Below are positions 3,532 through 41,377 of a stretch of DNA of 64,000 nucleotides, in pieces (position 1 is the stretch's first letter; every line of letters starts with the position of its first letter). The notes below the pieces were generated by a model. That model saw nothing but the letters and a program-made list of their open reading frames with translations, did no database searches and was not told where the DNA came from. The translations under genes were made by a program, and so were the position numbers. The stretch is from Bacillota bacterium (GTDB taxonomy: Bacteria > Bacillota_I > Bacilli_A > RF39 > UBA660): positions 2,572-66,571 of the forward strand of contig SVAS01000002.1 of assembly GCA_015059285.1 (NCBI GenBank), written 5' to 3'.

Positions 3532-4817
3532 AATATTTGAATAAATACGTTATCATTAATCATTCTAACATTTTCAAGATTAGAATTTTTATTAATAATT
3601 TCTTTAACTAAAGCAAGTCCATAACCATGTTCATTTCCTTTAGTGGTATATTTTACCATATCAATTTTATCTAAATCAATAGAACCTTCAAATGTATTAG
3701 CTATTGATATGTGAAATTTATCATCCATCATATAAAGTTCTATGCTGAGACTACCACTTTTTATTTTTTTACACTCTTCAATAGCATTATCTAAAAACAC
3801 ACCTACAATTTTACAAATATCTAAAATAAGATTTTCATTTAAATCTACCAAATGAACACTTCTTATTTTTCTGTCTATTTTTAGTTCAAAAAGAATATCA
3901 TTATTTTTCATATATAAAAGTTTAGAATAAATTAACGCTCTTAAACCACCGGCTGGAATTTTAGAGGTTTCCATAATTAAATTTTCATCATCTTGATATT
4001 CATTCTTAACAATATTATCTATATATTTGCTAACATCGCCTTTGGTATCTTTACCAAGCATATTTCTAATCATTAATAATTGATTTTTATTTTCATGATT
4101 AGAAACTTTATATTTATCTAATATATCTTCATAAGATTTTAGAGTTTCTAAAGTATTATTATATTTAACAGACATCTTTAGGTAATTATTGTTTGTAGCC
4201 ATAGTTCTAATAACCATTATAAAGCAACCTATGGTTAAAACTGTACATACAAGTACAAAATTTACTAAGTCTGTTTTAAAATACAAACAATAAAATAACA
4301 TACTTGAGCAAAGAATTAACACAATCACAATAGTAAATATTTTAACCACTTTTTCATTTTGTGATATAGTTTTTAATTTTTTATATAATGAATATATTAT
4401 TTTCAATCTCCCAACAAATAACACTAAAAACGAAACCAGTAAATTAGCATATATTGTTCCAAAAAACACATCAATCAGTTCATTTTGTTTGTTGATATTT
4501 AATAATAATACAACCAAAACAACTACTATTGATTCTGCTAAAATATATAAAAATTGTGTTATTATTGAAATTAATACTGCATCTTTCCAATTTGTTTTAA
4601 AAATTATTTTTAAAGTTAATATATATAGTATTATAACCAATAATAAAGAAAGTATTTTATTATTAAAAAAGTAATTTATAATTATTAATCCTATTAAAAC
4701 TATACTAATTAAATATAATTTATAATCCTTGAAGTTCAAATGCTTTTTTAACAATTTAGACCATATATAAAAATTAGTTAACACAATTGCTGTAGCTCCT
4801 ATAATATGATTTAACAT
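3516..4817 (-). CDS. agrC: AgrC-like sensor histidine kinase (HPK10 family, GHKL ATPase)
   Basis: 433 aa. N-terminal half has 6-7 TM helices. C-terminal HATPase with GHGYGLALVKEII G2 box. Adjacent and co-oriented with a LytTR response regulator. Confidence 0.8.
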   Translation of the reverse strand: MLNHIIGATAIVLTNFYIWSKLLKKHLNFKDYKLYLISIVLIGLIIINYFFNNKILSLLLVIILYILTLKIIFKTNWKDAVLISIITQFLYILAESIVVVLVVLLLNINKQNELIDVFFGTIYANLLVSFLVLFVGRLKIIYSLYKKLKTISQNEKVVKIFTIVIVLILCSSMLFYCLYFKTDLVNFVLVCTVLTIGCFIMVIRTMATNNNYLKMSVKYNNTLETLKSYEDILDKYKVSNHENKNQLLMIRNMLGKDTKGDVSKYIDNIVKNEYQDDENLIMETSKIPAGGLRALIYSKLLYMKNNDILFELKIDRKIRSVHLVDLNENLILDICKIVGVFLDNAIEECKKIKSGSLSIELYMMDDKFHISIANTFEGSIDLDKIDMVKYTTKGNEHGYGLALVKEIINKNSNLENVRMINDNVFIQILKISI

Positions 4818-5521
4818 TTACTCTTCAACTCCTTTTTATATTTATCAGATAGTAAGTCAATTGTAAGACCACTATCAAATAAAATCTTTTTTTTCATACT
4901 ATTAATAATCGCAACTCTTTCTTTATTTACAATGCAAGCTCTATGTGTTTGAACAAAACGTTCATCTAACATTGAAGATAATTCTAATAATGTTTTATAA
5001 GTTTTATATTCGTTTTTTTCAGTTTTAATAATACTTTTTCTTTCAATACTATCTCTTGTTATATATAAAATATCATTTAATGAAATATTATATATAACAC
5101 CTCTTTCTTCAAAATGTAATTTAGTTTGAATATTTAATATTTGTAAGGCTTTTAAAATAGATTTTTTCAATCTTTCATCAGAGTTTTCAAATTTATTAAT
5201 AAATGATAAAAACCATAGTTCTTTTTTCAAAACAGCAGGCCCAAGTTCATCATGACCTGTCATAAAAATAATAATACTTTCCATATCTTTTTCTCGTATA
5301 ACTCTAGCTATATCAATTCCAGATCTAGAAGGGGTTTCAATATCTAAAATATATATTCTAATACATTCTTTATTATTAATTAGTTTAATAAATTCATCAT
5401 TGTAATCATAAAAAGAAATTGTTTTATAAATAATTTTATTTTTCATCATAATATCATCTATTGTTTTTTCTACTTTTTCTGTAATTATTTTATCATCATC
5501 ACATATTATAAACTCTAGCAT
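4811..5521 (-). CDS. agrA: AgrA-like LytTR-family response regulator
   Basis: 236 aa. N-terminal receiver (IICDDD...) and C-terminal LytTR DNA-binding domain (FVQTHRACIVN). 7-nt overlap with agrC. Confidence 0.8.
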   Translation of the reverse strand: MLEFIICDDDKIITEKVEKTIDDIMMKNKIIYKTISFYDYNDEFIKLINNKECIRIYILDIETPSRSGIDIARVIREKDMESIIIFMTGHDELGPAVLKKELWFLSFINKFENSDERLKKSILKALQILNIQTKLHFEERGVIYNISLNDILYITRDSIERKSIIKTEKNEYKTYKTLLELSSMLDERFVQTHRACIVNKERVAIINSMKKKILFDSGLTIDLLSDKYKKELKSKC

Positions 5522-18068: not shown

Positions 18069-19184
18069 TTATTCAATACTCTTAGTTAATTCAACTTTCA
18101 CATCTTTAATTTTACCACTACGGTAATACTTAATTTCTACTTTATCACCAACTTGATGTTTATAAAGCAAGAAACGGAAATGAGCAATGCTTTTAATTTC
18201 AGTTCCATCAAATTGTAAAAGTATATCTCCTTTTTTTAAGCCTGCATTAAAAGCAGGGCTTCCTTTTTCTACTTCAACAACAGCAATACCATTAGTAACA
18301 TCATCTGGAATAATTATATTGTTTCTATATAAAGCAAAAGTATCGCTTATATCTAACATACTAACACCAAGTAATGGTCTTTGAACTTCTTCTCCAGCTT
18401 CTAACTGATCTACAGTAGCCATAACTAATTCAATCGGAATAGCAAATCCCATACCTTCTATTTCATCTTTTACTAATTTTAAAGAATTAACCCCAATTAC
18501 TTCACCATTGATATTACAAAGAGGTCCGCCACTATTCCCCGGATTAATCGCTGCATCAGTTTGAAGAACTTGCATCATAAATTCACCATTAGATAAACTA
18601 ACTTCTACAGTTCTATCTTTTCCAGATAAGATACCTTTAGTAACTGTACCCATATACTCTAGACCAAGTGGGGAACCAACTGTAAATAATGTATCCCCTA
18701 GTTCTAACGCATCACTATTTCCAATTTCAGCGACTGAAATAACTGCATCAGAAGAAATTGATAAAACTGCTATATCAGCATATGTGTCACTCCCTAATAC
18801 TGATGCCTCTACTGTTTGTCCAGAAGTATTAGTTATCTGAACATTATCAGCATCCTCTATAACATGATTATTAGTTATAATGTATCCATTTTTATCTTCT
18901 TTTTTGTAAACAAAACCTGTCCCACTACTAATTGTTTTACCATTTTTGTAAGATTCTATATACATAACAGCATCATACACTTTATCTAGAGAACTTTTAA
19001 TAGTATCTGTTTCTGTAATTGAAACTTCTTTAATAGTTCTTTCAGTCAACTCATTTTCAGGTATATATTTTATAACTACAATTGTACCTGTTACTCCTAC
19101 AAAAAGAGTTATAATAATTGTTAATAAATAAATTAATTTTTCTCTCATAAGTCCTCCTAAGCTAAATCTACTATATCGTGCCAA
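18069..19184 (-). CDS. htrA: HtrA/DegP-family serine protease (trypsin-like domain + PDZ), membrane-anchored
   Basis: N-terminal TM, catalytic TDAAINPGNSGGPL serine motif, C-terminal PDZ. Confidence 0.8.
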   Translation of the reverse strand: MARYSRFSLGGLMREKLIYLLTIIITLFVGVTGTIVVIKYIPENELTERTIKEVSITETDTIKSSLDKVYDAVMYIESYKNGKTISSGTGFVYKKEDKNGYIITNNHVIEDADNVQITNTSGQTVEASVLGSDTYADIAVLSISSDAVISVAEIGNSDALELGDTLFTVGSPLGLEYMGTVTKGILSGKDRTVEVSLSNGEFMMQVLQTDAAINPGNSGGPLCNINGEVIGVNSLKLVKDEIEGMGFAIPIELVMATVDQLEAGEEVQRPLLGVSMLDISDTFALYRNNIIIPDDVTNGIAVVEVEKGSPAFNAGLKKGDILLQFDGTEIKSIAHFRFLLYKHQVGDKVEIKYYRSGKIKDVKVELTKSIE

Positions 19185-20089
19185 TTATCTGGAAATCCAA
19201 TTCTATTTAAAATTCTATTTAATGGCACAACATCTACAATTCCATCTAAATGATCTACTTCATAACTAACTTCTCCTATTAAGTCATGGAATTCTTCTTC
19301 ACTTATCATTTGCTTTAACATGATAATAAGTGCGAATAAATCATTTTTACCAAAGATATATTCACCATCTGTCTTATCAATATCTAACATACGATGATAC
19401 TTATTATCTGGTATTTGTCTTTGCGTTCTATAATCGTATAAAATATCTTCATGAGCACATATATTTCTATAGTTTGCTAGTAAAGATATATATATTCCAA
19501 GTGTTTCCGCATCCATCTTATATAATTCAGCAATAAACATCCTATCATCTGATTTTAGTATGCTATAAAGTTCTGAAATAATTCCTAAAGATAAAACTTT
19601 TACTAAAATCCACATTGGAATATAACCATAATTATCAATATAATGCATTGTCGCAGTATGTTTACGACCATTCACTCTAATTTGCCTTTTCATCTTATTT
19701 AAAACATCTTTGACTTGACGAGTTTTAATAGCATCTTGAGTAAAATTTTTAGGATCTAAATAATCTTTTTCTTTATAACCATATTTTCTTGATAATTCAT
19801 AACTAATAATAGATTTTAAATTATTTTCTACTACTAATATATACTTAAACATAATATTTCTAACTTTGCGATCAAATAAAAACATACCATATAATTCTTC
19901 AAAAGTGGTTCCCTTAATAAAAGTATTGTCTTTATCTGAGCGCATAAAAAGATGACGATATCCACTAACAAAGAAGTAGTTTTCTCTAATAAGAACTTCT
20001 TTTGCTTTTCTAATATCGTTTATCATTAACCCCTTAGATGATAGAATTTCAATTTGTTCGTCTAACGTTTTAAATATCTTACTTTTCAT
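19157..20089 (-). CDS. Abi_2 (AbiD/AbiF-like) abortive infection family protein
   Basis: N-terminus MKSKIFKTLDEQIEILSSKGLMI...YFFVSGYRHLF matches Abi_2 family conserved start. 310 aa. Confidence 0.6.
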   Translation of the reverse strand: MKSKIFKTLDEQIEILSSKGLMINDIRKAKEVLIRENYFFVSGYRHLFMRSDKDNTFIKGTTFEELYGMFLFDRKVRNIMFKYILVVENNLKSIISYELSRKYGYKEKDYLDPKNFTQDAIKTRQVKDVLNKMKRQIRVNGRKHTATMHYIDNYGYIPMWILVKVLSLGIISELYSILKSDDRMFIAELYKMDAETLGIYISLLANYRNICAHEDILYDYRTQRQIPDNKYHRMLDIDKTDGEYIFGKNDLFALIIMLKQMISEEEFHDLIGEVSYEVDHLDGIVDVVPLNRILNRIGFPDNWHDIVDLA

Positions 20090-20928: not shown

Positions 20929-21349
20929 TTATCCTTTTATACGATATGTATCAATTGTTCTTTGTACTGCTAGTGATGGATCAAACACTTCATCAATTCT
21001 TTCTTTTCCTAATCTAGCAAGCCATAATTTTATTGGTTCCGCATTCTTACTAGGTATAGCCTCTATTATTCTAAACATTCCTTCTATATCAACTACATCT
21101 GTTAATCTATATTTACCATCCTGAGATTTCAATTTCAATTAGTCACAATTTGTGACCAGTTCATTTACTTCTTTTTGAAAGTCTTGATTTCAACACATTC
21201 CAATAATGTCTAGCATCTTTACTTTCAGTTAAAGCTCCAACAATATCAACAACACTAATATAATATTTATCTTCATTCTTATCCCATATAGTTCTTATGG
21301 TTTTATTATGAAACAATTTATTTATTAAGTGCTTATTTTCTTCTTTCAT
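20929..21349 (-). pseudogene. Disrupted gene (two adjacent same-strand ORFs, 62 + 69 aa) resembling a Bro-N/DinD-like DNA-damage-inducible protein
   Basis: ORF 21161..21349 (IRTIWDKNEDKYYISVVDIVGALTES) and ORF 20929..21138 (...EPIKLWLARLGKERIDE...) are separated by 22 bp. Together they resemble an N- and C-terminal half of one protein, consistent with a frameshift or stop disruption. Family assignment is weak. Confidence 0.3.
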
Positions 21350-21631: not shown

Positions 21632-22693
21632 CTAGATGACAGATTTTGAGATTTCGATAACTGGGCGCACACCGTAGTAGAAACCATCGTTGACGTTGAA
21701 GTAGTCAACGTAACCGTCGTAGCCCACGTACCAAGCGCTGCCCGCATAGTCCGCATAAGCAGAGCTTAGCCAGAAGCCATATGGTGGGTTGGATAAATTT
21801 CCATACAACCATGCTGGACATCCAACGTCATATTCTACACATCCTAACAAATCTATTGCTTCATCATGTGTTAACATTCGAGCTCTTGCATTTGTTCTTT
21901 CTATTGCGTATTGTCCTTGATCGTCTGCTAATGTATATGTTTTTGCTGGGATGTTTGTCCAACTACTTGTTTTACTTTCTAAGTAATTTAACGCTGTTAG
22001 TGGACCTTTTTCGTTTGTTGAACAATAATCTCCGGCTTCTCCACATCCATAGTCTTTTTCACTAATCCATGCTACTGTTTCTTCATCTACGTTTCTATCC
22101 ATGATTAATGTTAATGTCCCTGTTGTAGCATCGTCTTTTACTACGTAGAATGTCTTCGCGTCTTCTTTATCGTTTACTTTAACTTGTACTGCTATTCCTG
22201 CTTTTATCGCATCTTCACTACATGTTTCGTTTGCATTTGTGATACATGTTGCTGTTGATGTAATTATTGGGTTTGCTGCTTTTTTATATTCACAGCTTCC
22301 TTCATATTTTGTTGTTGTGATTGCACTTTCGCTTGTTGCTTTTGTTACACAATGTGCTCCATTATTTACAGCAATAGCAACTTTTCCATCTTTTGTTACT
22401 GTTATTTTTCCATTTGTTGGAAGTGCCCCCTTAACTTCTAGTTTGTTTTCTCCAACAAATTCTCCGTTTGTTATTGTAAACTCTACATCTGAAGCCATTC
22501 CATTTTCTAATAGTGAACTTGCATAATACATCTCTCCTGCATCAATAAGTCCATATGCAGTATCTTCAAATGCACTTTCTCTTGCACTACTGATAATGTT
22601 CATTATTACTGGTACTGCAATAAGCGCTATAATTGCTAGTATCACTATTACTGCTAGTAACTCGATCAATGTAAACCCTTTATCTTTTCTCAT
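21632..22693 (-). CDS. DGR target protein: type IV pilin-like (class III signal peptide MRKDKG|FTLIELLAVIVIL, Glu+5) N-terminus with C-terminal C-type-lectin-fold variable domain
   Basis: Canonical prepilin cleavage and methylation motif. C-terminal ...AWLYGNLSNPPYGFWLSSAYADYAGSAWYVGYDGYVDYFNVNDGFYYGVRPVI carries the VR. Start moved to the ATG at 22693, 5 nt after GGTGGTGA (track used an upstream GTG). Confidence 0.8.
   Translation of the reverse strand: MRKDKGFTLIELLAVIVILAIIALIAVPVIMNIISSARESAFEDTAYGLIDAGEMYYASSLLENGMASDVEFTITNGEFVGENKLEVKGALPTNGKITVTKDGKVAIAVNNGAHCVTKATSESAITTTKYEGSCEYKKAANPIITSTATCITNANETCSEDAIKAGIAVQVKVNDKEDAKTFYVVKDDATTGTLTLIMDRNVDEETVAWISEKDYGCGEAGDYCSTNEKGPLTALNYLESKTSSWTNIPAKTYTLADDQGQYAIERTNARARMLTHDEAIDLLGCVEYDVGCPAWLYGNLSNPPYGFWLSSAYADYAGSAWYVGYDGYVDYFNVNDGFYYGVRPVIEISKSVI
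21661..21765 (-). repeat. DGR variable region (VR) at 3' end of target gene
   Basis: 105-bp region about 80% identical to TR 23054..23158. 19 of 21 differences fall at TR adenine positions (AAC/AAT codons in TR vs TAC/GGC/TTC/GAC/AGC/GAT etc. in VR). The 3' boundary is a GC-rich CTGGGCGCACACCG block (IMH-like) in a 27% GC context. Confidence 0.8.
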
Positions 22694-23053
22694 ATCTATC
22701 ACCACCTATCGTTTCATTCTATTATCAGTTTAGCAGTTTTTTATTATTTTCTTTTGTTGTATTACTATTTGTTTTATACTTTTTTCTTTTTTCGACTTTT
22801 TTCTCTCTCTTTTTTACTGCTACTCTGACTTTATTTATTATACATTTTTATCTATCTTCAATTTGTTTTATAACATAAATATTTCAACAAAAAAATCGTA
22901 GTGAACAGACTACTTCATTTTCAATTTCTTTACTAGTGAATTCATCATCTACGATATAGTATTCCTTAAAGTTACCTTTAAGAGGAAAAACACTTGTTTT
23001 CTTTAGCTTTTATTTACTAACCTTAGTCCAGTAAAACGTAGTTTTAAAGAAAT

Positions 23054-23158
23054 CTGGGCGCACACCGTAGTTGTTGTCATTGTTGACGTTGTTGTTGTTA
23101 ACGTTACCGTCGTTGTTCACGTTCCAAGCGTTGTTAGCATTGTCCGCATTAGCAGAGC
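23054..23158 (-). repeat. DGR template region (TR), AAC-rich (13 AAC + 3 AAT codons)
   Basis: Lies in the non-coding gap between the RT gene and the target. On the coding (minus) strand it reads ...AAT GCG GAC AAT GCT AAC AAC GCT TGG AAC GTG AAC AAC GAC GGT AAC GTT AAC AAC AAC AAC GTC AAC AAT GAC AAC AAC TAC GGT GTG CGC CCA G. Confidence 0.8.
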
Positions 23159-23240: not shown

Positions 23241-24443
23241 TTAAGTTTTATACATTATTTTTTTATCTATTATCATAACTTCTGAACCAATAAGGTCATA
23301 TTTTTTTTCATATTTATTTAAAGTATTAGCGACTAGTTTTTTAGTATGCCCATAACTTAAATGTCCCAAATAACTACCCTTGACTTGTAGAAATTTTTCA
23401 TATGGAATAACATTTTGTTCAACTAAACTATTTAACTTTTTAATTTTTCTTTTAAATCTTTTTTTTGTTTGATTTTTTACTTTCATAATCACTTTATTGT
23501 TTTTTATCATATATTTAAAACCTAAGAATTCAAAAGGTTCTTTATGATTATAAATGCGTGTTTTTTTGTTTAACTCTAGTTTATATTTATCAAGTATTTT
23601 TTCTATTTCTTGTAAACAATATTCTAAATATTTTTTATCTTCATGAATTAAAATTCCATCATCCATATATCTTATATAATACTTAATTTTTAATTTTTCT
23701 TTTATATAGTGATCTAATTCATTTAAATATGTAATTGCGAAAACTTGACTAGACATATTTCCTATTGGAAGCCCTTTCCCTTTTTTGTATTCAGGAAGGC
23801 TATTTATTTCTTCAATTAGTTTTTCTTTATCCTGGGCCTTACTATTTAAAATTTTATTGATTTCATGCTGTTTTACTTTTTGTATAGTCTTATTAACATA
23901 TTCTTCATTAGTACTATCAATTATTAAATCAAATATGTTAATTACTTCCTTATCTTTGATTTTTGTTCTAACAAGTTTTTTTATAATATCATGATCTAAA
24001 TTAAAAAAATATTTAGAAATATCAAATTTTAAAACATAAAAAGGTTTGTTTTTTACTTCATTTAAATATTTTTTTAAAAGTTGTATTCCATAATGCGTTC
24101 CTTTTCCTTTTCTGGTTGCTATATTTTGATCAATTAATGATTTATCAAAAACATTTATCATAAAATATTCACTTACAACATGATTAATAATTTTATCAAT
24201 AATATTTTGTGACATTATTAATCTAAGTTTTGGTTCTTTTATTAAAAATACATTATATCTGCCTGGTACATACTCTCTACGTTCTAGAAGCGTTTTAATA
24301 TAAATCATATTAGATACATAATAATTATCAAATTTTTCTAATTTCTTTTTATTTTTAGTATTAATTCTAACTCTATGGTCATATACTTTTTGAATTTTTT
24401 GGATATCAATTATCTGATTGTATAGATTGTTTTTCCTTTTCAT
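23241..24443 (-). CDS. DGR reverse transcriptase
   Basis: 400 aa. RT motifs including LPIGNMSSQ (the DGR-specific I/LGxxxSQ motif 4) and IRYMDDGIL (YxDD). Adjacent to the TR. Confidence 0.9.
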   Translation of the reverse strand: MKRKNNLYNQIIDIQKIQKVYDHRVRINTKNKKKLEKFDNYYVSNMIYIKTLLERREYVPGRYNVFLIKEPKLRLIMSQNIIDKIINHVVSEYFMINVFDKSLIDQNIATRKGKGTHYGIQLLKKYLNEVKNKPFYVLKFDISKYFFNLDHDIIKKLVRTKIKDKEVINIFDLIIDSTNEEYVNKTIQKVKQHEINKILNSKAQDKEKLIEEINSLPEYKKGKGLPIGNMSSQVFAITYLNELDHYIKEKLKIKYYIRYMDDGILIHEDKKYLEYCLQEIEKILDKYKLELNKKTRIYNHKEPFEFLGFKYMIKNNKVIMKVKNQTKKRFKRKIKKLNSLVEQNVIPYEKFLQVKGSYLGHLSYGHTKKLVANTLNKYEKKYDLIGSEVMIIDKKIMYKT

Positions 24444-24762
24444 TTTTCATCCAAGTATTTGTCATTTTATTAATTTCTAATAAATGTCTTCCTACTACTT
24501 CATACTTTTTAAAACTTATTAATTTCTTATCTAAACTTACTTTTATATAATAATTGATCATGCGTATTCTAACTATTAAATCTTTCATATATTTATCATT
24601 TTTATGGACATTTGCTTTATAAACTAATTCCAATAAATCATAACAACTATCCATAATTTTGTTTTTTAATATTACTTCTGTATGTGGATAATTACAAATA
24701 GCCTTTTCAATATATTCAATAGTCTTTTTTATTCGTGTTGCAATTAATAATTTATCTTGCAC
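24406..24762 (-). CDS. avd: Accessory variability determinant (Avd-like four-helix-bundle protein)
   Basis: 118-aa basic helical protein. It overlaps the RT start by 38 nt. Its position and size match Avd. Sequence similarity to Avd was not verified. Confidence 0.55.
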   Translation of the reverse strand: MQDKLLIATRIKKTIEYIEKAICNYPHTEVILKNKIMDSCYDLLELVYKANVHKNDKYMKDLIVRIRMINYYIKVSLDKKLISFKKYEVVGRHLLEINKMTNTWMKNEKEKQSIQSDN

Positions 24763-25169
24763 AAAAGTTCCTCAATTTCATTTAAGACTGTTTTTAAATT
24801 AGAATTACCTAAATTAGCTTTTAACACTTCATATATTTTATTAATCCTATTTACAAAAATATCATAGTTATCTAATCTAAAACTATATTTACTATAAGAG
24901 TTATTCTTATATTTATATTTCTGTATATTATCATCATTAACAATCAGATAATTTATATGTTTGTTTTCTAATGCTTTTTCAATTTTTGAAAGACTTGTAA
25001 TAGGAAAACCAACTTTAATTAAGTTGGTTGTTTCTTTTATTTTATAATTAAATAATCTATTCATAACAATAGCATCATCATTTAAAGATAAATAGAAGCT
25101 CCCACATTTGATAAGAATTATGTAATCCTTATAAATTTCTTTATAAGTATTGTATTTTTCTTTTAACAC
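24744..25169 (-). CDS. Standalone MutS domain I (mismatch-binding domain)-like protein, first gene of the DGR operon
   Basis: YKEIYKDYIILIKCGSFYLSLNDDAIVMNRLFNYKI...KVGFPITSLSKIEKALENKHINYLIVND aligns with the MutS N-terminus (Y..iK..yPd.lLffr.GdFYElf.dDA...s.lL.i.Lt...PmaGvP.ha...Yl.kLv..G..VaIceQ). The Glu of the Phe-x-Glu motif is replaced (FYL). 19-nt overlap with the avd start. Confidence 0.5.
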   Translation of the reverse strand: MLKEKYNTYKEIYKDYIILIKCGSFYLSLNDDAIVMNRLFNYKIKETTNLIKVGFPITSLSKIEKALENKHINYLIVNDDNIQKYKYKNNSYSKYSFRLDNYDIFVNRINKIYEVLKANLGNSNLKTVLNEIEELLCKINY

Positions 25170-25302
25170 TATATAACCTCCAACTTAAAATAAAACATAC
25201 AACATACTACTTAATCTAAAATGCTTACTTCTATCACCTTCCTACTCTTTATATATATTATCACAAAAGTTCACTAATTGCTACCGTTTTAACAAATATT
25301 TG

Positions 25303-25340
25303 TACAAAAAAACGATTTGATTTTTATTTCAAATCGTTTT
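25303..25340 (-). terminator. Rho-independent terminator after the 25339..25857 gene
   Basis: Stem AACGATTTGA/TCAAATCGTT with a 9-nt loop, followed by a T-run on the minus strand. Confidence 0.55.
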
Positions 25341-25857
25341 AAGGAGTAGTACATTTGCTTCCATCACTTATCATACAATCAACGCAGTTTAATAAAGTCG
25401 GACTTTCATCAGGGGCCACTATACCAACTACAAATTGAACAACAGTAACAACTAGAAAAACAACAGCACCAGCAATCAATCTTTTAATAAATTTACCTTT
25501 GGCATCCGCCATTTTCTTTTCATCACTTGCGATAGTTGCTTGTAACATGTCTATCATACCCATAACTATTAAAACAAGAGGGACTGCAATTTTTATTAAT
25601 GTCACAATCGATCTAGTGATAACTGGCAATTGACTTGGAATGTTAGAATTACCACATTTTACAAGATCATTCGGATCTAAACAACCCCAAAATTCATCCT
25701 CTATATAAGAACTATTTGCACAAGCCAGTGTTGAAATAGAGTTCAATTGCATTTGCTTGTGCTGATTTAAATCAACTTCTTTTGCTGAAACACTTTCCAC
25801 AAATAATATAGTTAACATCAATGTCATTATCATAAATATCTTTTTCATACTTTTCAC
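25339..25857 (-). CDS. Secreted/membrane protein with signal peptide, Cys-rich N-terminal domain and C-terminal TM helices; unknown function
   Basis: Signal peptide MKSMKKIFMIMTLMLTILFVESVSA. 9 Cys. Two C-terminal hydrophobic helices. Confidence 0.4.
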   Translation of the reverse strand: MKSMKKIFMIMTLMLTILFVESVSAKEVDLNQHKQMQLNSISTLACANSSYIEDEFWGCLDPNDLVKCGNSNIPSQLPVITRSIVTLIKIAVPLVLIVMGMIDMLQATIASDEKKMADAKGKFIKRLIAGAVVFLVVTVVQFVVGIVAPDESPTLLNCVDCMISDGSKCTTP

Positions 25858-29981: not shown

Positions 29982-30650
29982 TTAATTATTACTAATTTTT
30001 TTCTTTCTAATCACTATAACACTTATTAATCCAATTAAAGAAATTACTAACAAGATAATACTTGTTCCTACATTATCATTCGTTTGTGGATTTTCAGGTG
30101 AGGAAATAGACGATGAAATTATTTCCCACTGTGCATAAAATGTCCTATTGCTATCAATTCCTGATTCAGCTAAAATAAGTTCTAATTTTGTGCCACCAGT
30201 CTTTTCTGTATAATAACCCAAAAATTTATAACCTTCTCTAGTAGGTGTTTCTAATGCACTTTCCATTCCTATTTCCCATTTTTCAATAGTTAAAGTATCA
30301 CCAGTTGTAAAATTCCCACCATTTGCATCAAATATAACTTTATATTTTTCATTGTTAAAAACTAAAATTGTGCTGCCTATTGAAACATTATAATCCCCTA
30401 AAGTCCTTCCGTTTTCCATTTCGTTATCGTCAAATATTAATTTTTGATTTTCAGGTAAAAAACTATTATCTAATTGATAGATTTTTTCTTTTACCGCTTC
30501 TATTGTATCAGATGATTCCACTTCTAAAGTTATTTGTCCTATAGATGGTTTTTGTACAACTATTTGCATAGCACTTATTTTTGGTATATAAATAAATACA
30601 AAGAAGAATATAATAAATGGGATTATTTTATATTTTTTCACATTAATCAC
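29982..30650 (-). CDS. Secreted protein predicted to be anchored by sortase B (NPQTN motif): signal peptide + ubiquitin-like domain (about 45% identical to eukaryotic ubiquitin) + Listeria/Bacteroides (Flg_new) repeat + NPQTN sorting signal
   Basis: The mature N-terminus MQIVVQKPSIGQITLEVESSDTIEAVKEKI...QKLIF...ENGRTLGDYN...ST aligns with ubiquitin [30 protein letters not shown]...QRLIF...EDGRTLSDYN...ST. Then KVIFDANGGNFTTGDT...YKFLGYYTEKTGG. C-terminus ENPQTN + hydrophobic stretch + RKKK. Confidence 0.55.
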   Translation of the reverse strand: MINVKKYKIIPFIIFFFVFIYIPKISAMQIVVQKPSIGQITLEVESSDTIEAVKEKIYQLDNSFLPENQKLIFDDNEMENGRTLGDYNVSIGSTILVFNNEKYKVIFDANGGNFTTGDTLTIEKWEIGMESALETPTREGYKFLGYYTEKTGGTKLELILAESGIDSNRTFYAQWEIISSSISSPENPQTNDNVGTSIILLVISLIGLISVIVIRKKKISNN

Positions 30651-40022: not shown

Positions 40023-40973
40023 CTAGTCTTCATCACGGAATTTAAGTCCCATATCTTTAATTTTGTCCATAACTTCTTTTAAAGATTTTTTACCTAAATT
40101 ACGTATTTTCATCATTTCTAATTCAGATTTTTCAACTAAGTCTCCTAATGTATTAACATTAGCTCTTTTTAAACAATTATATGCTCTTACTGAAAAATCT
40201 AAATCTTCAATTGAAGTTTCTAATTTTTTAAGTTTACTATCTTCTTGTTTAGCAGACATAATACCTGTTGTATCAGCTAGTTCACTTAAATTAGTAACAA
40301 TATTTAAATGTTCTATTAATATTTTAGCACCTAAAGCCATTGCTTCTTCTGGTTTTAAAGAACCATTTGTGAATACTTCCATAATTAATTTATCATAGTT
40401 AGCATCTTGACCAACACGAGCATTATCTACTTCATAACTAATTCTTTCAATTGGAGAATATAATGCATCAATCGGAATAAATCCGATTTTTTCATTTTCA
40501 ACAAATTTTTTGTTATCGTGAGATGGAACATATCCACGACCACTTGCTACGATCATTTCCATGCTTAATTTTCCACCTTTAGCAACTGTTGCGATAACTT
40601 GATCTTTGTTAATAATTTCAACATCAGCATCTGTTTTAATATCTCCTGCTGTTACAACACCTTCTTTATCAGTTGATAAAGTAATTATTTTGTTTTCTTC
40701 AACATTTTTCTTTATAACAATACTTTTTAAATTTAAAACAATTGAAGTAACGTCTTCTACTATACCCTCCATTGCTTGGAATTCGTGCATAACACCGTCA
40801 ATTCTAACAGCAACAATAGCACTACCTGGCATATTTGATAACATTACTCTTCTAAGTGCATTACCAATAGTTGTTCCGAAACCTCTTTCTAAAGGTTCTA
40901 ATTCAAATTTTCCATAATTATTGTTTTCAATATATTCAGTTATTTTATACATTGGTTTTTCAAAGTTTAACAC
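40023..40973 (-). CDS. rpoA: DNA-directed RNA polymerase alpha subunit
   Basis: ...KFELEPLERGFGTTIGNALRRVMLS... Start placed at GTG (VLNFEKP), 9 nt after AAGGAG, by alignment to other RpoA N-termini. The track ATG upstream would overlap rpsK by 30 nt. Confidence 0.85.
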   Translation of the reverse strand: MLNFEKPMYKITEYIENNNYGKFELEPLERGFGTTIGNALRRVMLSNMPGSAIVAVRIDGVMHEFQAMEGIVEDVTSIVLNLKSIVIKKNVEENKIITLSTDKEGVVTAGDIKTDADVEIINKDQVIATVAKGGKLSMEMIVASGRGYVPSHDNKKFVENEKIGFIPIDALYSPIERISYEVDNARVGQDANYDKLIMEVFTNGSLKPEEAMALGAKILIEHLNIVTNLSELADTTGIMSAKQEDSKLKKLETSIEDLDFSVRAYNCLKRANVNTLGDLVEKSELEMMKIRNLGKKSLKEVMDKIKDMGLKFRDED

Positions 40974-40993
40974 TTTTCCACACTCCTTTTCTT

Positions 40994-41377
40994 TTATCCA
41001 CGAGGACGTTTTGGTGGACGACATCCATTATGTGGGATAGGCGTTACATCAGAAATTGAAGTAATTTCTAATCCTGCAGTTTGTAAAGAACGAATAGCTG
41101 TTTCACGTCCTGAACCTAAACCTTTAACAAAAACTTCTACTTTTTTCATACCCATATCACAAGCAGCTTTACCAGCAGCTTCTGCAGCCATACCAGCAGC
41201 AAATGGAGTAGATTTTTTACTTCCTTTAAATCCTAAAGTTCCAGCTGAAGCCCAACTAATAGCATTTCCTTCAGTATCACTAATTGTAACAATAGTGTTA
41301 TTGAATGTTGAATGAATATATGCTTGACCAACTGGTACATTCTTTTTAACTTTACGTTTTCTTGGTTTATAAGCCAT
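40994..41377 (-). CDS. rpsK: 30S ribosomal protein S11
   Basis: Conserved S11 sequence and position. Confidence 0.9.

Follow-up and report, generated by a model that had tools for sequence, protein, structure and literature searches.

Among the accessory proteins of DGRs, four classes were distinguished in a survey of 372 such elements, namely Avd, HRDC, MSL (for 'MutS-like') and CH1 (Wu et al., NAR 2018, PMC5758913). MSL proteins, with lengths of 112-283 aa, were found in 16 of these 372 DGRs, one of which belongs to Legionella, and they always occurred together with avd and never with HRDC, an arrangement that defines 'Architecture D' (PMC5758913). The same study also described RTs that carry MutS_I motifs at their C-terminus. 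A 2021 review then counted MSL among the standard DGR accessories, and PF01624 was scored as DGR-associated in a 2023 survey. More recently, Msl was reported in three Bacteroides DGRs that diversify the tips of type V pili (Macadangdang et al., bioRxiv 2024.11.15.621889).

The wider context of this class is given by recent work, according to which most DGR heteroduplexes are reverted by MutS and mutagenesis by engineered DGRs depends on the suppression of MMR. In an Msl-less Bacteroides DGR, the deletion of mutS increased mutagenesis of the VR 5-10 fold, in an all-or-nothing fashion, and the Msl-bearing Bacteroides DGRs are the low-activity ones, which was ascribed to low transcription (bioRxiv 2024.11.15.621889). 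Retrohoming of BPP-1 does not require mutS (PMC5758913). In a 2026 preprint, the observation of 'many MutS-like homologs ... in the natural DGR systems' is what motivates the use of a dominant-negative MutL in an engineered DGR. Full-text literature searches returned no experiments on the function of any MSL.

Here, we describe a DGR whose leading gene almost certainly encodes an MSL accessory, as the first gene of a cassette with the order msl-avd-RT-TR-target. The author of an earlier note on this DNA knew of no described DGR accessory of this kind, but the class was named MSL by Wu et al. (2018, PMC5758913) and is listed in later papers. MSL thus has been a named accessory class since 2017/18, such that the protein studied here adds little as a discovery. 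The idea of the same note that the protein could protect or stabilise the cDNA:DNA mismatches, or counteract MMR, is plausible, and it is the implicit hypothesis of the field. What we add are modest contributions, namely the size of the family, a near-invariant Phe, a variable Glu position and a conserved C-terminal hairpin.

Results

The window, by which we mean the whole stretch of 64,000 nucleotides that was analysed, is chromosomal: it harbors a ribosomal-protein operon with an S10-Clostridia leader, and has 27% GC. An ORF of 333 aa at 40023..41024, which we take to be RpoA, is 87% identical to its match in the MAG 'Bacillota bacterium OH_SBlB_51'. The host is an uncultured gut Bacilli lineage with a small genome, whose neighbours are labelled Acholeplasma sp. 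CAG:878, Candidatus Coprosoma or Pelethosoma.

The msl gene lies at 24744..25169 on the minus strand, as do all features of the cassette and its upstream boundary described below. In the list of open reading frames it comprises 141 aa with a GTG start, and the stop codon is contained within these coordinates. A Shine-Dalgarno sequence, GGAGG, can be read from the sequence at 25177..25181, 7 nt 5′ of the GTG. The gene preceding msl (25339..25857) ends in an intrinsic terminator with a 12-bp stem and a U7 tail at 25306..25340 (-11.9 kcal/mol, z = -4.9 against shuffles), which marks msl as opening a new transcription unit. Between the two, TGTGATAAT at 25257..25265 was picked out by eye only as a possible extended -10 promoter element; a scan with the sigma-70 consensus found 24 sites, with 30.6 expected from shuffles, and is uninformative at this GC content.

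At its 3′ end, msl overlaps the GTG of avd (24762) by 19 nt, and the Shine-Dalgarno sequence of avd, GAGGAA, sits within this msl 3′ end. The avd gene (24406..24762) encodes 118 aa and matches Pfam bAvd with E=5.4e-13 as well as NCBIfam DivGenRetAVD with E=7e-16, though its 58.4 bits for the latter fall below the curated cut-off of 80. It is followed, with an overlap of 38 nt, by the gene for a DGR reverse transcriptase of 400 aa (23241..24443; Pfam RVT_1, E=1.6e-17). The earlier note had given the coordinates of the msl frame and its length of 141 aa exactly, had noticed its overlap with the avd start, and had rightly seen msl as the first gene of the DGR operon, given that the terminator is followed by the overlapping genes msl, avd and RT. 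Co-transcription of these three genes is supported.

Past the RT gene lies the template repeat (TR) of 105 nt (23054..23158), which contains 37 adenines and is rich in in-frame AAC and AAT codons. The corresponding variable repeat (VR), likewise of 105 nt (21661..21765), is located in the C-terminal end of the target gene and is followed by the last 8 codons. Of the 21 positions at which the two repeats are mismatched, 19 have an adenine in the TR (hypergeometric P=1.7e-10). Both repeats end in the GC-rich 16-mer TACGGTGTGCGCCCAG, of which the window contains no further copy. The target gene (21632..22705), about 350 nt past the TR, encodes a type-IV-pilin-like protein of 357 aa (Pfam N_methyl, E=2.4e-9; NCBIfam IV_pilin_GFxxxE), which bears a prepilin methylation motif at its N-terminus and a variable domain at its C-terminus; a match of aa 308-352 to Pfam DUF6273 is weak and below threshold. 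Apart from msl, avd, RT and the target, the cassette contains no ORF of 100 aa or more, and no match to HRDC was obtained with Pfam for any of these four. The DGR headed by msl is genuine.

MSL has the fold of MutS domain I over most of its length. Its sequence matches the Pfam family MutS_I (PF01624) with E=5.9e-7 and 30.1 bits, the curated cut-off being 20.6 bits, such that aa 4-70 fall on positions 5-76 of the 113 profile positions, and this is the sole Pfam family above its cut-off in the protein. A phmmer search of PDB sequences with the single MSL protein gave no match, and MutS was reached by family profiles only. A profile of 18 close homologues aligned aa 3-36 with residues 17-50 of Taq MutS, placing 'sgnFyial' on 'vGDFYECF'. 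A profile of 57 family sequences found, among PDB sequences, the MutS proteins of Taq (E=1.1e-4) and E. coli (E=0.014), with G-x-F-Y of the family lying on G-D-F36-Y of MutS and the alignment extending to the G-[IF]-P motif. In these profile-to-PDB alignments, F25 of MSL falls on F39 of Taq and F36 of E. coli MutS, and L27 on E41 and E38, which agrees with the earlier observation that the Phe is kept and the Glu is lost. The codons for F25-Y26-L27, the equivalent of the Phe-x-Glu motif, are found at 25089..25097.

An AlphaFold2 model of MSL, calculated with an alignment of 18 sequences as input, reached a mean pLDDT of 87.8 and a pTM of 0.72. When this model was compared with the PDB by Foldseek, the best 50 matches were all domain I of MutS, MSH3 or MSH6, headed by 8raw_B with E=2.2e-5 and an rmsd of 1.6 A over 80 columns. 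Other fold relatives, for instance a tRNA-endonuclease-like nuclease, were absent among these 50. The Pfam score and the structural matches together answer the check for a relationship with MutS_I that the earlier note had named. From Foldseek, DSSP and the alignments with Taq and E. coli MutS, the domain I-like fold spans approximately aa 1-88 (24906..25169); the homologous part within it is approximately aa 1-85, not far from the first 90 or so residues given in the earlier note. According to DSSP, the first beta-hairpin of the model is formed by strands 17-22 and 25-29, and F25 comes straight after the turn, as in MutS. This hairpin, with G23-S24-F25, thus bears the Phe equivalent to F36 of E. 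coli MutS, and a GFP motif follows at aa 54-56.

The remainder of the protein, approximately aa 98-141 (24747..24878), is predicted to form a hairpin of two helices (102-118 and 125-136 by DSSP) without a counterpart in MutS. This hairpin had been considered as half of an Avd bundle, because MAFFT aligned it with helix 1 of Avd, but hhalign gave this relationship a probability of 0.3% over a single column, and the idea was rejected. MutS domains II-V, i.e., connector, lever, clamp and ATPase, are lacking, as the protein stops at residue 141. MSL hence is not a MutS protein: the domain I fold is present, and the Glu of Phe-x-Glu and domains II-V are absent. MSL is a basic protein, with a calculated pI of 9.12 for the whole and 9.2 for the domain I part.

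A word-indexed search yielded 35 homologues of MSL with 43-100% identity, nearly all of them 137-144 aa long, which share both the start (N-terminus MLKEKY) and the end with the protein of the window. When 1.84 billion representatives, taken at 50% identity, were searched exhaustively with a profile, 1,374 clusters reached E<=1e-3, of which 390 also reached E<=1e-10. Almost all of the best 150 profile matches measure 130-150 aa and align over the full profile, including the C-terminal hairpin. Scans of genome contigs and of metagenomes with the MSL protein alone gave no relatives, and an alignment of seq­uences from seven members as query of the metagenomes gave 7 loci. NCBIfam contains no model for MSL. 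A tblastn search of 50,697 GenBank phage records found no relative of the window MSL, and the subfamily to which it belongs therefore is not evidently phage-borne.

Across 147 aligned members, G23 (144 members), F25 (143), D32 (144) and G54-F55-P56 (142-146) are near-invariant, and so are N73-Y74, N90 and Y92. Position 27, in contrast, varies, with I in 36 members, E in 33, L in 24, N in 12, H in 12 and R in 7. The full Phe-x-Glu motif thus is retained by approximately one fifth of the family, and the two such members that were examined (L015 and L016) are linked to DGRs. In all 18 close relatives of the window MSL, this position is occupied by I, L or V. Column counts further identify R108, I109, I112, L116, I132 and E133 as conserved positions of the C-terminal hairpin.

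Together with the window locus, the relatives make up 18 independent loci. A DGR-type RT is found within 2.6 kb of msl in 17 of them, and avd is adjacent to msl or fused with it in 16, which bears out the conservation with DGRs for which the earlier note had proposed to look. Where an RT adjoins msl in the related loci, it is 40-68% identical. As a rule, the genes overlap and follow one another as msl-avd-RT; exceptions are L015, which has avd-RT-msl, and L105, in which the RT lies on the opposite strand. Three loci of one set (P0012; L001-L003) carry an orphan msl with neither avd nor RT nearby, beside a pilin-like gene and a 40-aa fragment of MreB, and this set looks like a decayed cassette.

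Furthermore, MSL occurs in natural fusions with both core proteins. MSL::Avd fusions are represented by P0105, found on 10 contigs and followed by an RT, and by P0123. In an RT::MSL fusion (P0111), which is preceded by an avd fragment, RVT_1 occupies aa 71-313 and MutS_I aa 383-445. These natural fusions argue for a physical association of MSL with the RT-Avd machine. The alignment of the MSL::Avd fusions shows domain I, a low-complexity linker and then Avd, with the C-terminal hairpin absent. This hairpin, which is dispensable in the fusions, therefore is a candidate docking element. An AlphaFold2 model of the P0105 fusion, calculated from single-sequence input, had a mean pLDDT of 46.7, at which the packing is not interpretable.

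Discussion

In the reading of these results that we prefer, and that may quite possibly be correct, MSL rides with RT-Avd, binds the heteroduplex between cDNA and VR, and keeps host MutS off. MSL would be translated alongside Avd and RT and would travel with the RT-Avd complex, although its contact with these two as separate proteins, like mismatch binding and competition with MutS, is something that we infer. The adenine-mutagenised cDNA would pair with the VR and so create a mismatch-dense heteroduplex, to which the domain I module would bind through its conserved, Phe-bearing hairpin. By occupying the sites that host MutS would recognise, MSL would allow more heteroduplexes to escape reversion to the parental VR. 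Having neither an ATPase nor a surface that recruits MutL, it could, under this proposal, not itself license repair. With some reserve, one might then describe MSL as a local anti-MMR decoy of the MutS mismatch sensor that is encoded by the retroelement and delivered by RT-Avd.

Two observations from other DGRs favor such a protection from MutS, namely that mutS limits DGR output (bioRxiv 2024.11.15.621889) and that dominant-negative MutL raises the output of an engineered DGR. Two others count against it, namely the low activity of the Msl-bearing Bacteroides DGRs, ascribed though it was to low transcription, and the independence of BPP-1 retrohoming from mutS.

Can a domain I with Leu at the position of the Glu be expected to recognise mismatches? 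Structures of the E. coli MutS variants E38A, E38Q and E38T on a G.T mismatch are among the Foldseek matches of MSL (ranks 31, 34 and 40), and since these mutants crystallise on G.T, loss of the Glu alone does not abolish mismatch binding. In full-length MutS, however, the DNA is gripped by domains I and IV of the dimer, and domain I on its own may fail to bind mismatches. Also, the fact that only 33 of 147 members have E at position 27 does not suggest one strict chemistry for the family.

These considerations touch on two alternative functions, both of which we regard as rather unlikely. In the first, MSL would act during cDNA synthesis instead of afterwards. Belonging to a complex with RT, Avd and RNA, it would bind the RNA:cDNA hybrid at sites of fresh misincorporation opposite template adenines, and by stabilising the mismatched primer terminus or the nascent mismatched hybrid it would let synthesis continue, as a processivity or mutagenesis factor. 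The conserved Phe would fit this role, as would the existence of MSL::Avd fusions and the overlap of the genes, which implies stoichiometric co-production. The position of MSL C-terminal of the RT domain in P0111 points in the same direction, in so far as we infer from it a nearness to the product exit. However, the DGRs of BPP-1 and of Bacteroides Bov and Bfi mutate adenines efficiently with RT and Avd alone, and we know of no MutS domain I that binds RNA:DNA hybrids.

The second alternative, to which we would give similarly little weight, is that MSL is a general nucleic-acid-binding or scaffold subunit without mismatch specificity, which might tether the RNP to the target duplex DNA or bind the TR RNA, and that the MutS_I fold has been taken over as a mere platform for DNA binding, in which the Phe is structural. 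The fusions, which indicate an association with RT and Avd, are silent on the ligand, and a basic protein with a pI of 9.1 would suit such a role. Furthermore, the Glu for mismatch discrimination is absent from the window MSL and variable across the family. Human MSH2 is instructive in this respect, as it has the sequence GDFYT, i.e., Phe without Glu, and does not insert its domain I into the mismatch; hence, the Phe of MSL may be structural, too, which also speaks against the mechanism that we prefer. Against this stands the near-invariance of the G-x-F hairpin and of D32 over some 150 divergent members, which exceeds the needs of a scaffold, and the full F-x-E in about one fifth of the members.

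A further possibility, which we consider improbable, is that MSL does not block host factors but recruits or redirects them, for instance by marking the heteroduplex for resolution toward the cDNA strand by repair or replication, or by binding MutL or the beta-clamp. Neither the N90-x-Y92 motif nor the conserved hairpin at the C-terminus has an assigned partner, and both would be available for such a contact. Yet the surface with which MutS binds MutL lies outside of domain I, in the connector and ATPase domains, and MSL lacks these MutL-binding domains. Moreover, MutS activity lowers rather than raises DGR output (bioRxiv 2024.11.15.621889).

Finally, that the ORF at 24744..25169 is a chance frame or a decaying, functionless MutS fragment is an exceedingly faint prospect: although the orphan msl genes of P0012 (L001-L003) illustrate that copies can be left behind, this notion is effectively refuted by a full-length family of 43-96% identity with conserved start, length and motifs, by the 1,374 representative clusters, by the confidently predicted fold, and by the strong Shine-Dalgarno sequence and the overlap with avd.

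If MSL does protect the heteroduplex from host MutS, it would constitute a natural and portable means of switching off MMR at a single locus, by which mutations could be fixed without rendering the whole cell a mutator. This would account for the presence of MSL in some DGRs while MutS throttles others, and it would clarify the step of mutagenic retrohoming that is understood least, the fixing of the cDNA information in the VR. Local relief from MMR by a small natural protein would also serve directed evolution based on DGRs. The fusions, together with the pattern of conservation and the size of the family, make the function of MSL more directly testable, and a family this large and compact, with approximately 1,400 clusters of mostly 130-150 aa, provides handles for functional study.

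How, then, does the window MSL compare with known systems? With the 16 MSL proteins of Wu et al. (PMC5758913), to which it can be likened by description rather than by sequence, it shares the homology to MutS, the location in a DGR, the presence of avd and the absence of HRDC. Its length of 141 aa lies inside the reported range of 112-283 aa, and its pI of 9.12 exceeds the published mean of 7.2 +/- 1.7 by slightly more than one SD. It differs from this class in its host, an uncultured gut Bacilli, and in its type-IV-pilin-like target. The Bacteroides DGRs Bfr, Bth and Bun resemble the window locus, again by description, in that a pair of Avd and Msl belongs to a chromosomal DGR of a gut bacterium with a pilus protein as its target. 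However, their targets are type V pilus tip adhesins of Bacteroidota, whereas the target in the window is of the prepilin type (type IV) and belongs to Bacillota.

With respect to MutS itself, the fold of MSL is that of domain I in the E. coli (1e3m) and Taq (1ewq) proteins, with an rmsd of approximately 1.3-1.8 A over some 80 residues. They have in common the Phe on the same beta-hairpin (F36/F39 in MutS) as well as the D-A and G-[IF]-P motifs. In contrast to MutS, the window subfamily has neither the Glu of Phe-x-Glu nor a dimer interface, and it has an additional helical hairpin at the C-terminus. The best structural matches to MSL are chains of MSH3, though the difference to MutS (2e-5 versus 5e-5) is not meaningful, and unlike the stand-alone MSL, domain I of MSH2 and MSH3 belongs to heterodimeric ATPases of about 900 aa. 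The stand-alone MutS_I proteins of phages and giant viruses in BFVD resemble MSL in being small and consisting mainly of domain I: they comprise 153 aa in Siphoviridae sp. ctZro7, 74 and 84 aa in Myoviridae sp. and 135 aa in Klosneuvirus.

If the proposed mechanism is right, the functional analog of MSL would be dominant-negative MutL(E32K), which in engineered DGRs and in recombineering relieves MMR, such that cDNA-templated mismatches persist. MutL(E32K), however, is an engineered mutant of another MMR protein and acts as a genome-wide mutator, whereas MSL would be a natural solution, encoded by the element and possibly local in its effect.

Natural variants of the MSL protein and other stand-alone MutS domain-I proteins

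The 141-aa MutS domain-I-like (MSL) protein encoded by msl (24744..25169, minus strand) belongs to a family in which a short motif, N90-x-Y92 in the numbering of the window protein, is near-invariant, with N90 kept in 135 of 147 aligned members and Y92 in 144. The motif comes directly after the final strand of this fold (domain I) and is not part of the region that aligns with Pfam MutS_I.

Members of the family also occur fused to Avd or to RT. Two natural MSL::Avd gene fusions were found, P0105 (245 aa; 4082..4819 of the related locus L013), which is present on 10 contigs, and P0123 (230 aa); in the alignment, a low-complexity linker takes the place of the MSL C-terminal hairpin in these fusions. 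We found no mention of them in the DGR literature examined. There is furthermore a natural RT::MSL fusion of 519 aa, P0111 (L012, 183..1742), and RT-MutS_I extensions were mentioned by Wu et al. (PMC5758913).

An msl gene without its partners is found in locus L001 (6001..6527), and also in L002 and L003. It encodes a protein of 144 aa with an altered C-terminus (P0012), and neither avd nor RT is found within 6 kb of it. The gene is followed by a 40-aa fragment of MreB, although mreB is also present in intact form 2 kb upstream, and the locus looks like a DGR cassette that was truncated by rearrangement. Stand-alone MutS domain-I proteins of 74-153 aa are also encoded by viruses, namely metagenomic sipho- and myoviruses and Klosneuvirus (BFVD matches A0A8S5PPT8, A0A8S5PL02, A0A8S5L9N2 and A0A1V0SJ64).

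Surroundings of the cassette

The gene directly upstream of msl (25339..25857, minus strand) encodes a protein of 172 aa that has a signal peptide and contains a T4SS_pilin (VirB2/TrbC-like) domain (Pfam E=3e-8); a terminator stands between this gene and the DGR. On the other side, approximately 1.5 kb past the DGR target, there is an Abi_2 (AbiD/AbiF-like abortive-infection) gene (19157..20089, minus strand; Pfam E=3e-41). Two short adjacent ORFs of 69 and 62 aa (20929..21349, minus strand), for which a Pfam search gave no match, resemble on visual inspection a Bro-N-type gene that has been split, and an intact Bro-N gene is located downstream of RT in the related locus L006.

Further away, a 222-aa protein (29982..30650, minus strand) carries a ubiquitin-family domain at aa 39-98 (Pfam PF00240, E=1.2e-14), together with an N-terminal signal or TM segment, a Flg_new (Listeria-Bacteroides) repeat and, at the C-terminus, a TM anchor. 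By eye, its PF00240 domain bears a strong likeness to eukaryotic ubiquitin. In this gut bacterium, the ubiquitin-like domain is predicted to be displayed at the cell surface.

Template, variable repeat and target

Two of the 21 differences between TR (23054..23158) and VR (21661..21765) do not fall on TR adenines, namely a T>G at position 23 and a C>T at position 83 of the repeat (1-based). These two could be explained by ordinary point mutation after the most recent round of retrohoming or by errors at bases other than adenine.

The DGR target (21632..22705, minus strand) carries the prepilin-type (type IV pilin/pseudopilin) N-terminal methylation motif according to both Pfam and NCBIfam, and genes with an N_methyl match, identified as neighbors only, adjoin two related DGRs (L004, 4118..5854; L006, 153..1340). 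Full-text literature searches for DGR with "type IV pilin" or "prepilin" returned no paper. Since the Msl-bearing DGRs of Bacteroides diversify the tips of type V pili (Macadangdang et al., bioRxiv 2024.11.15.621889), DGRs of the MSL type may be associated preferentially with proteins of pili.
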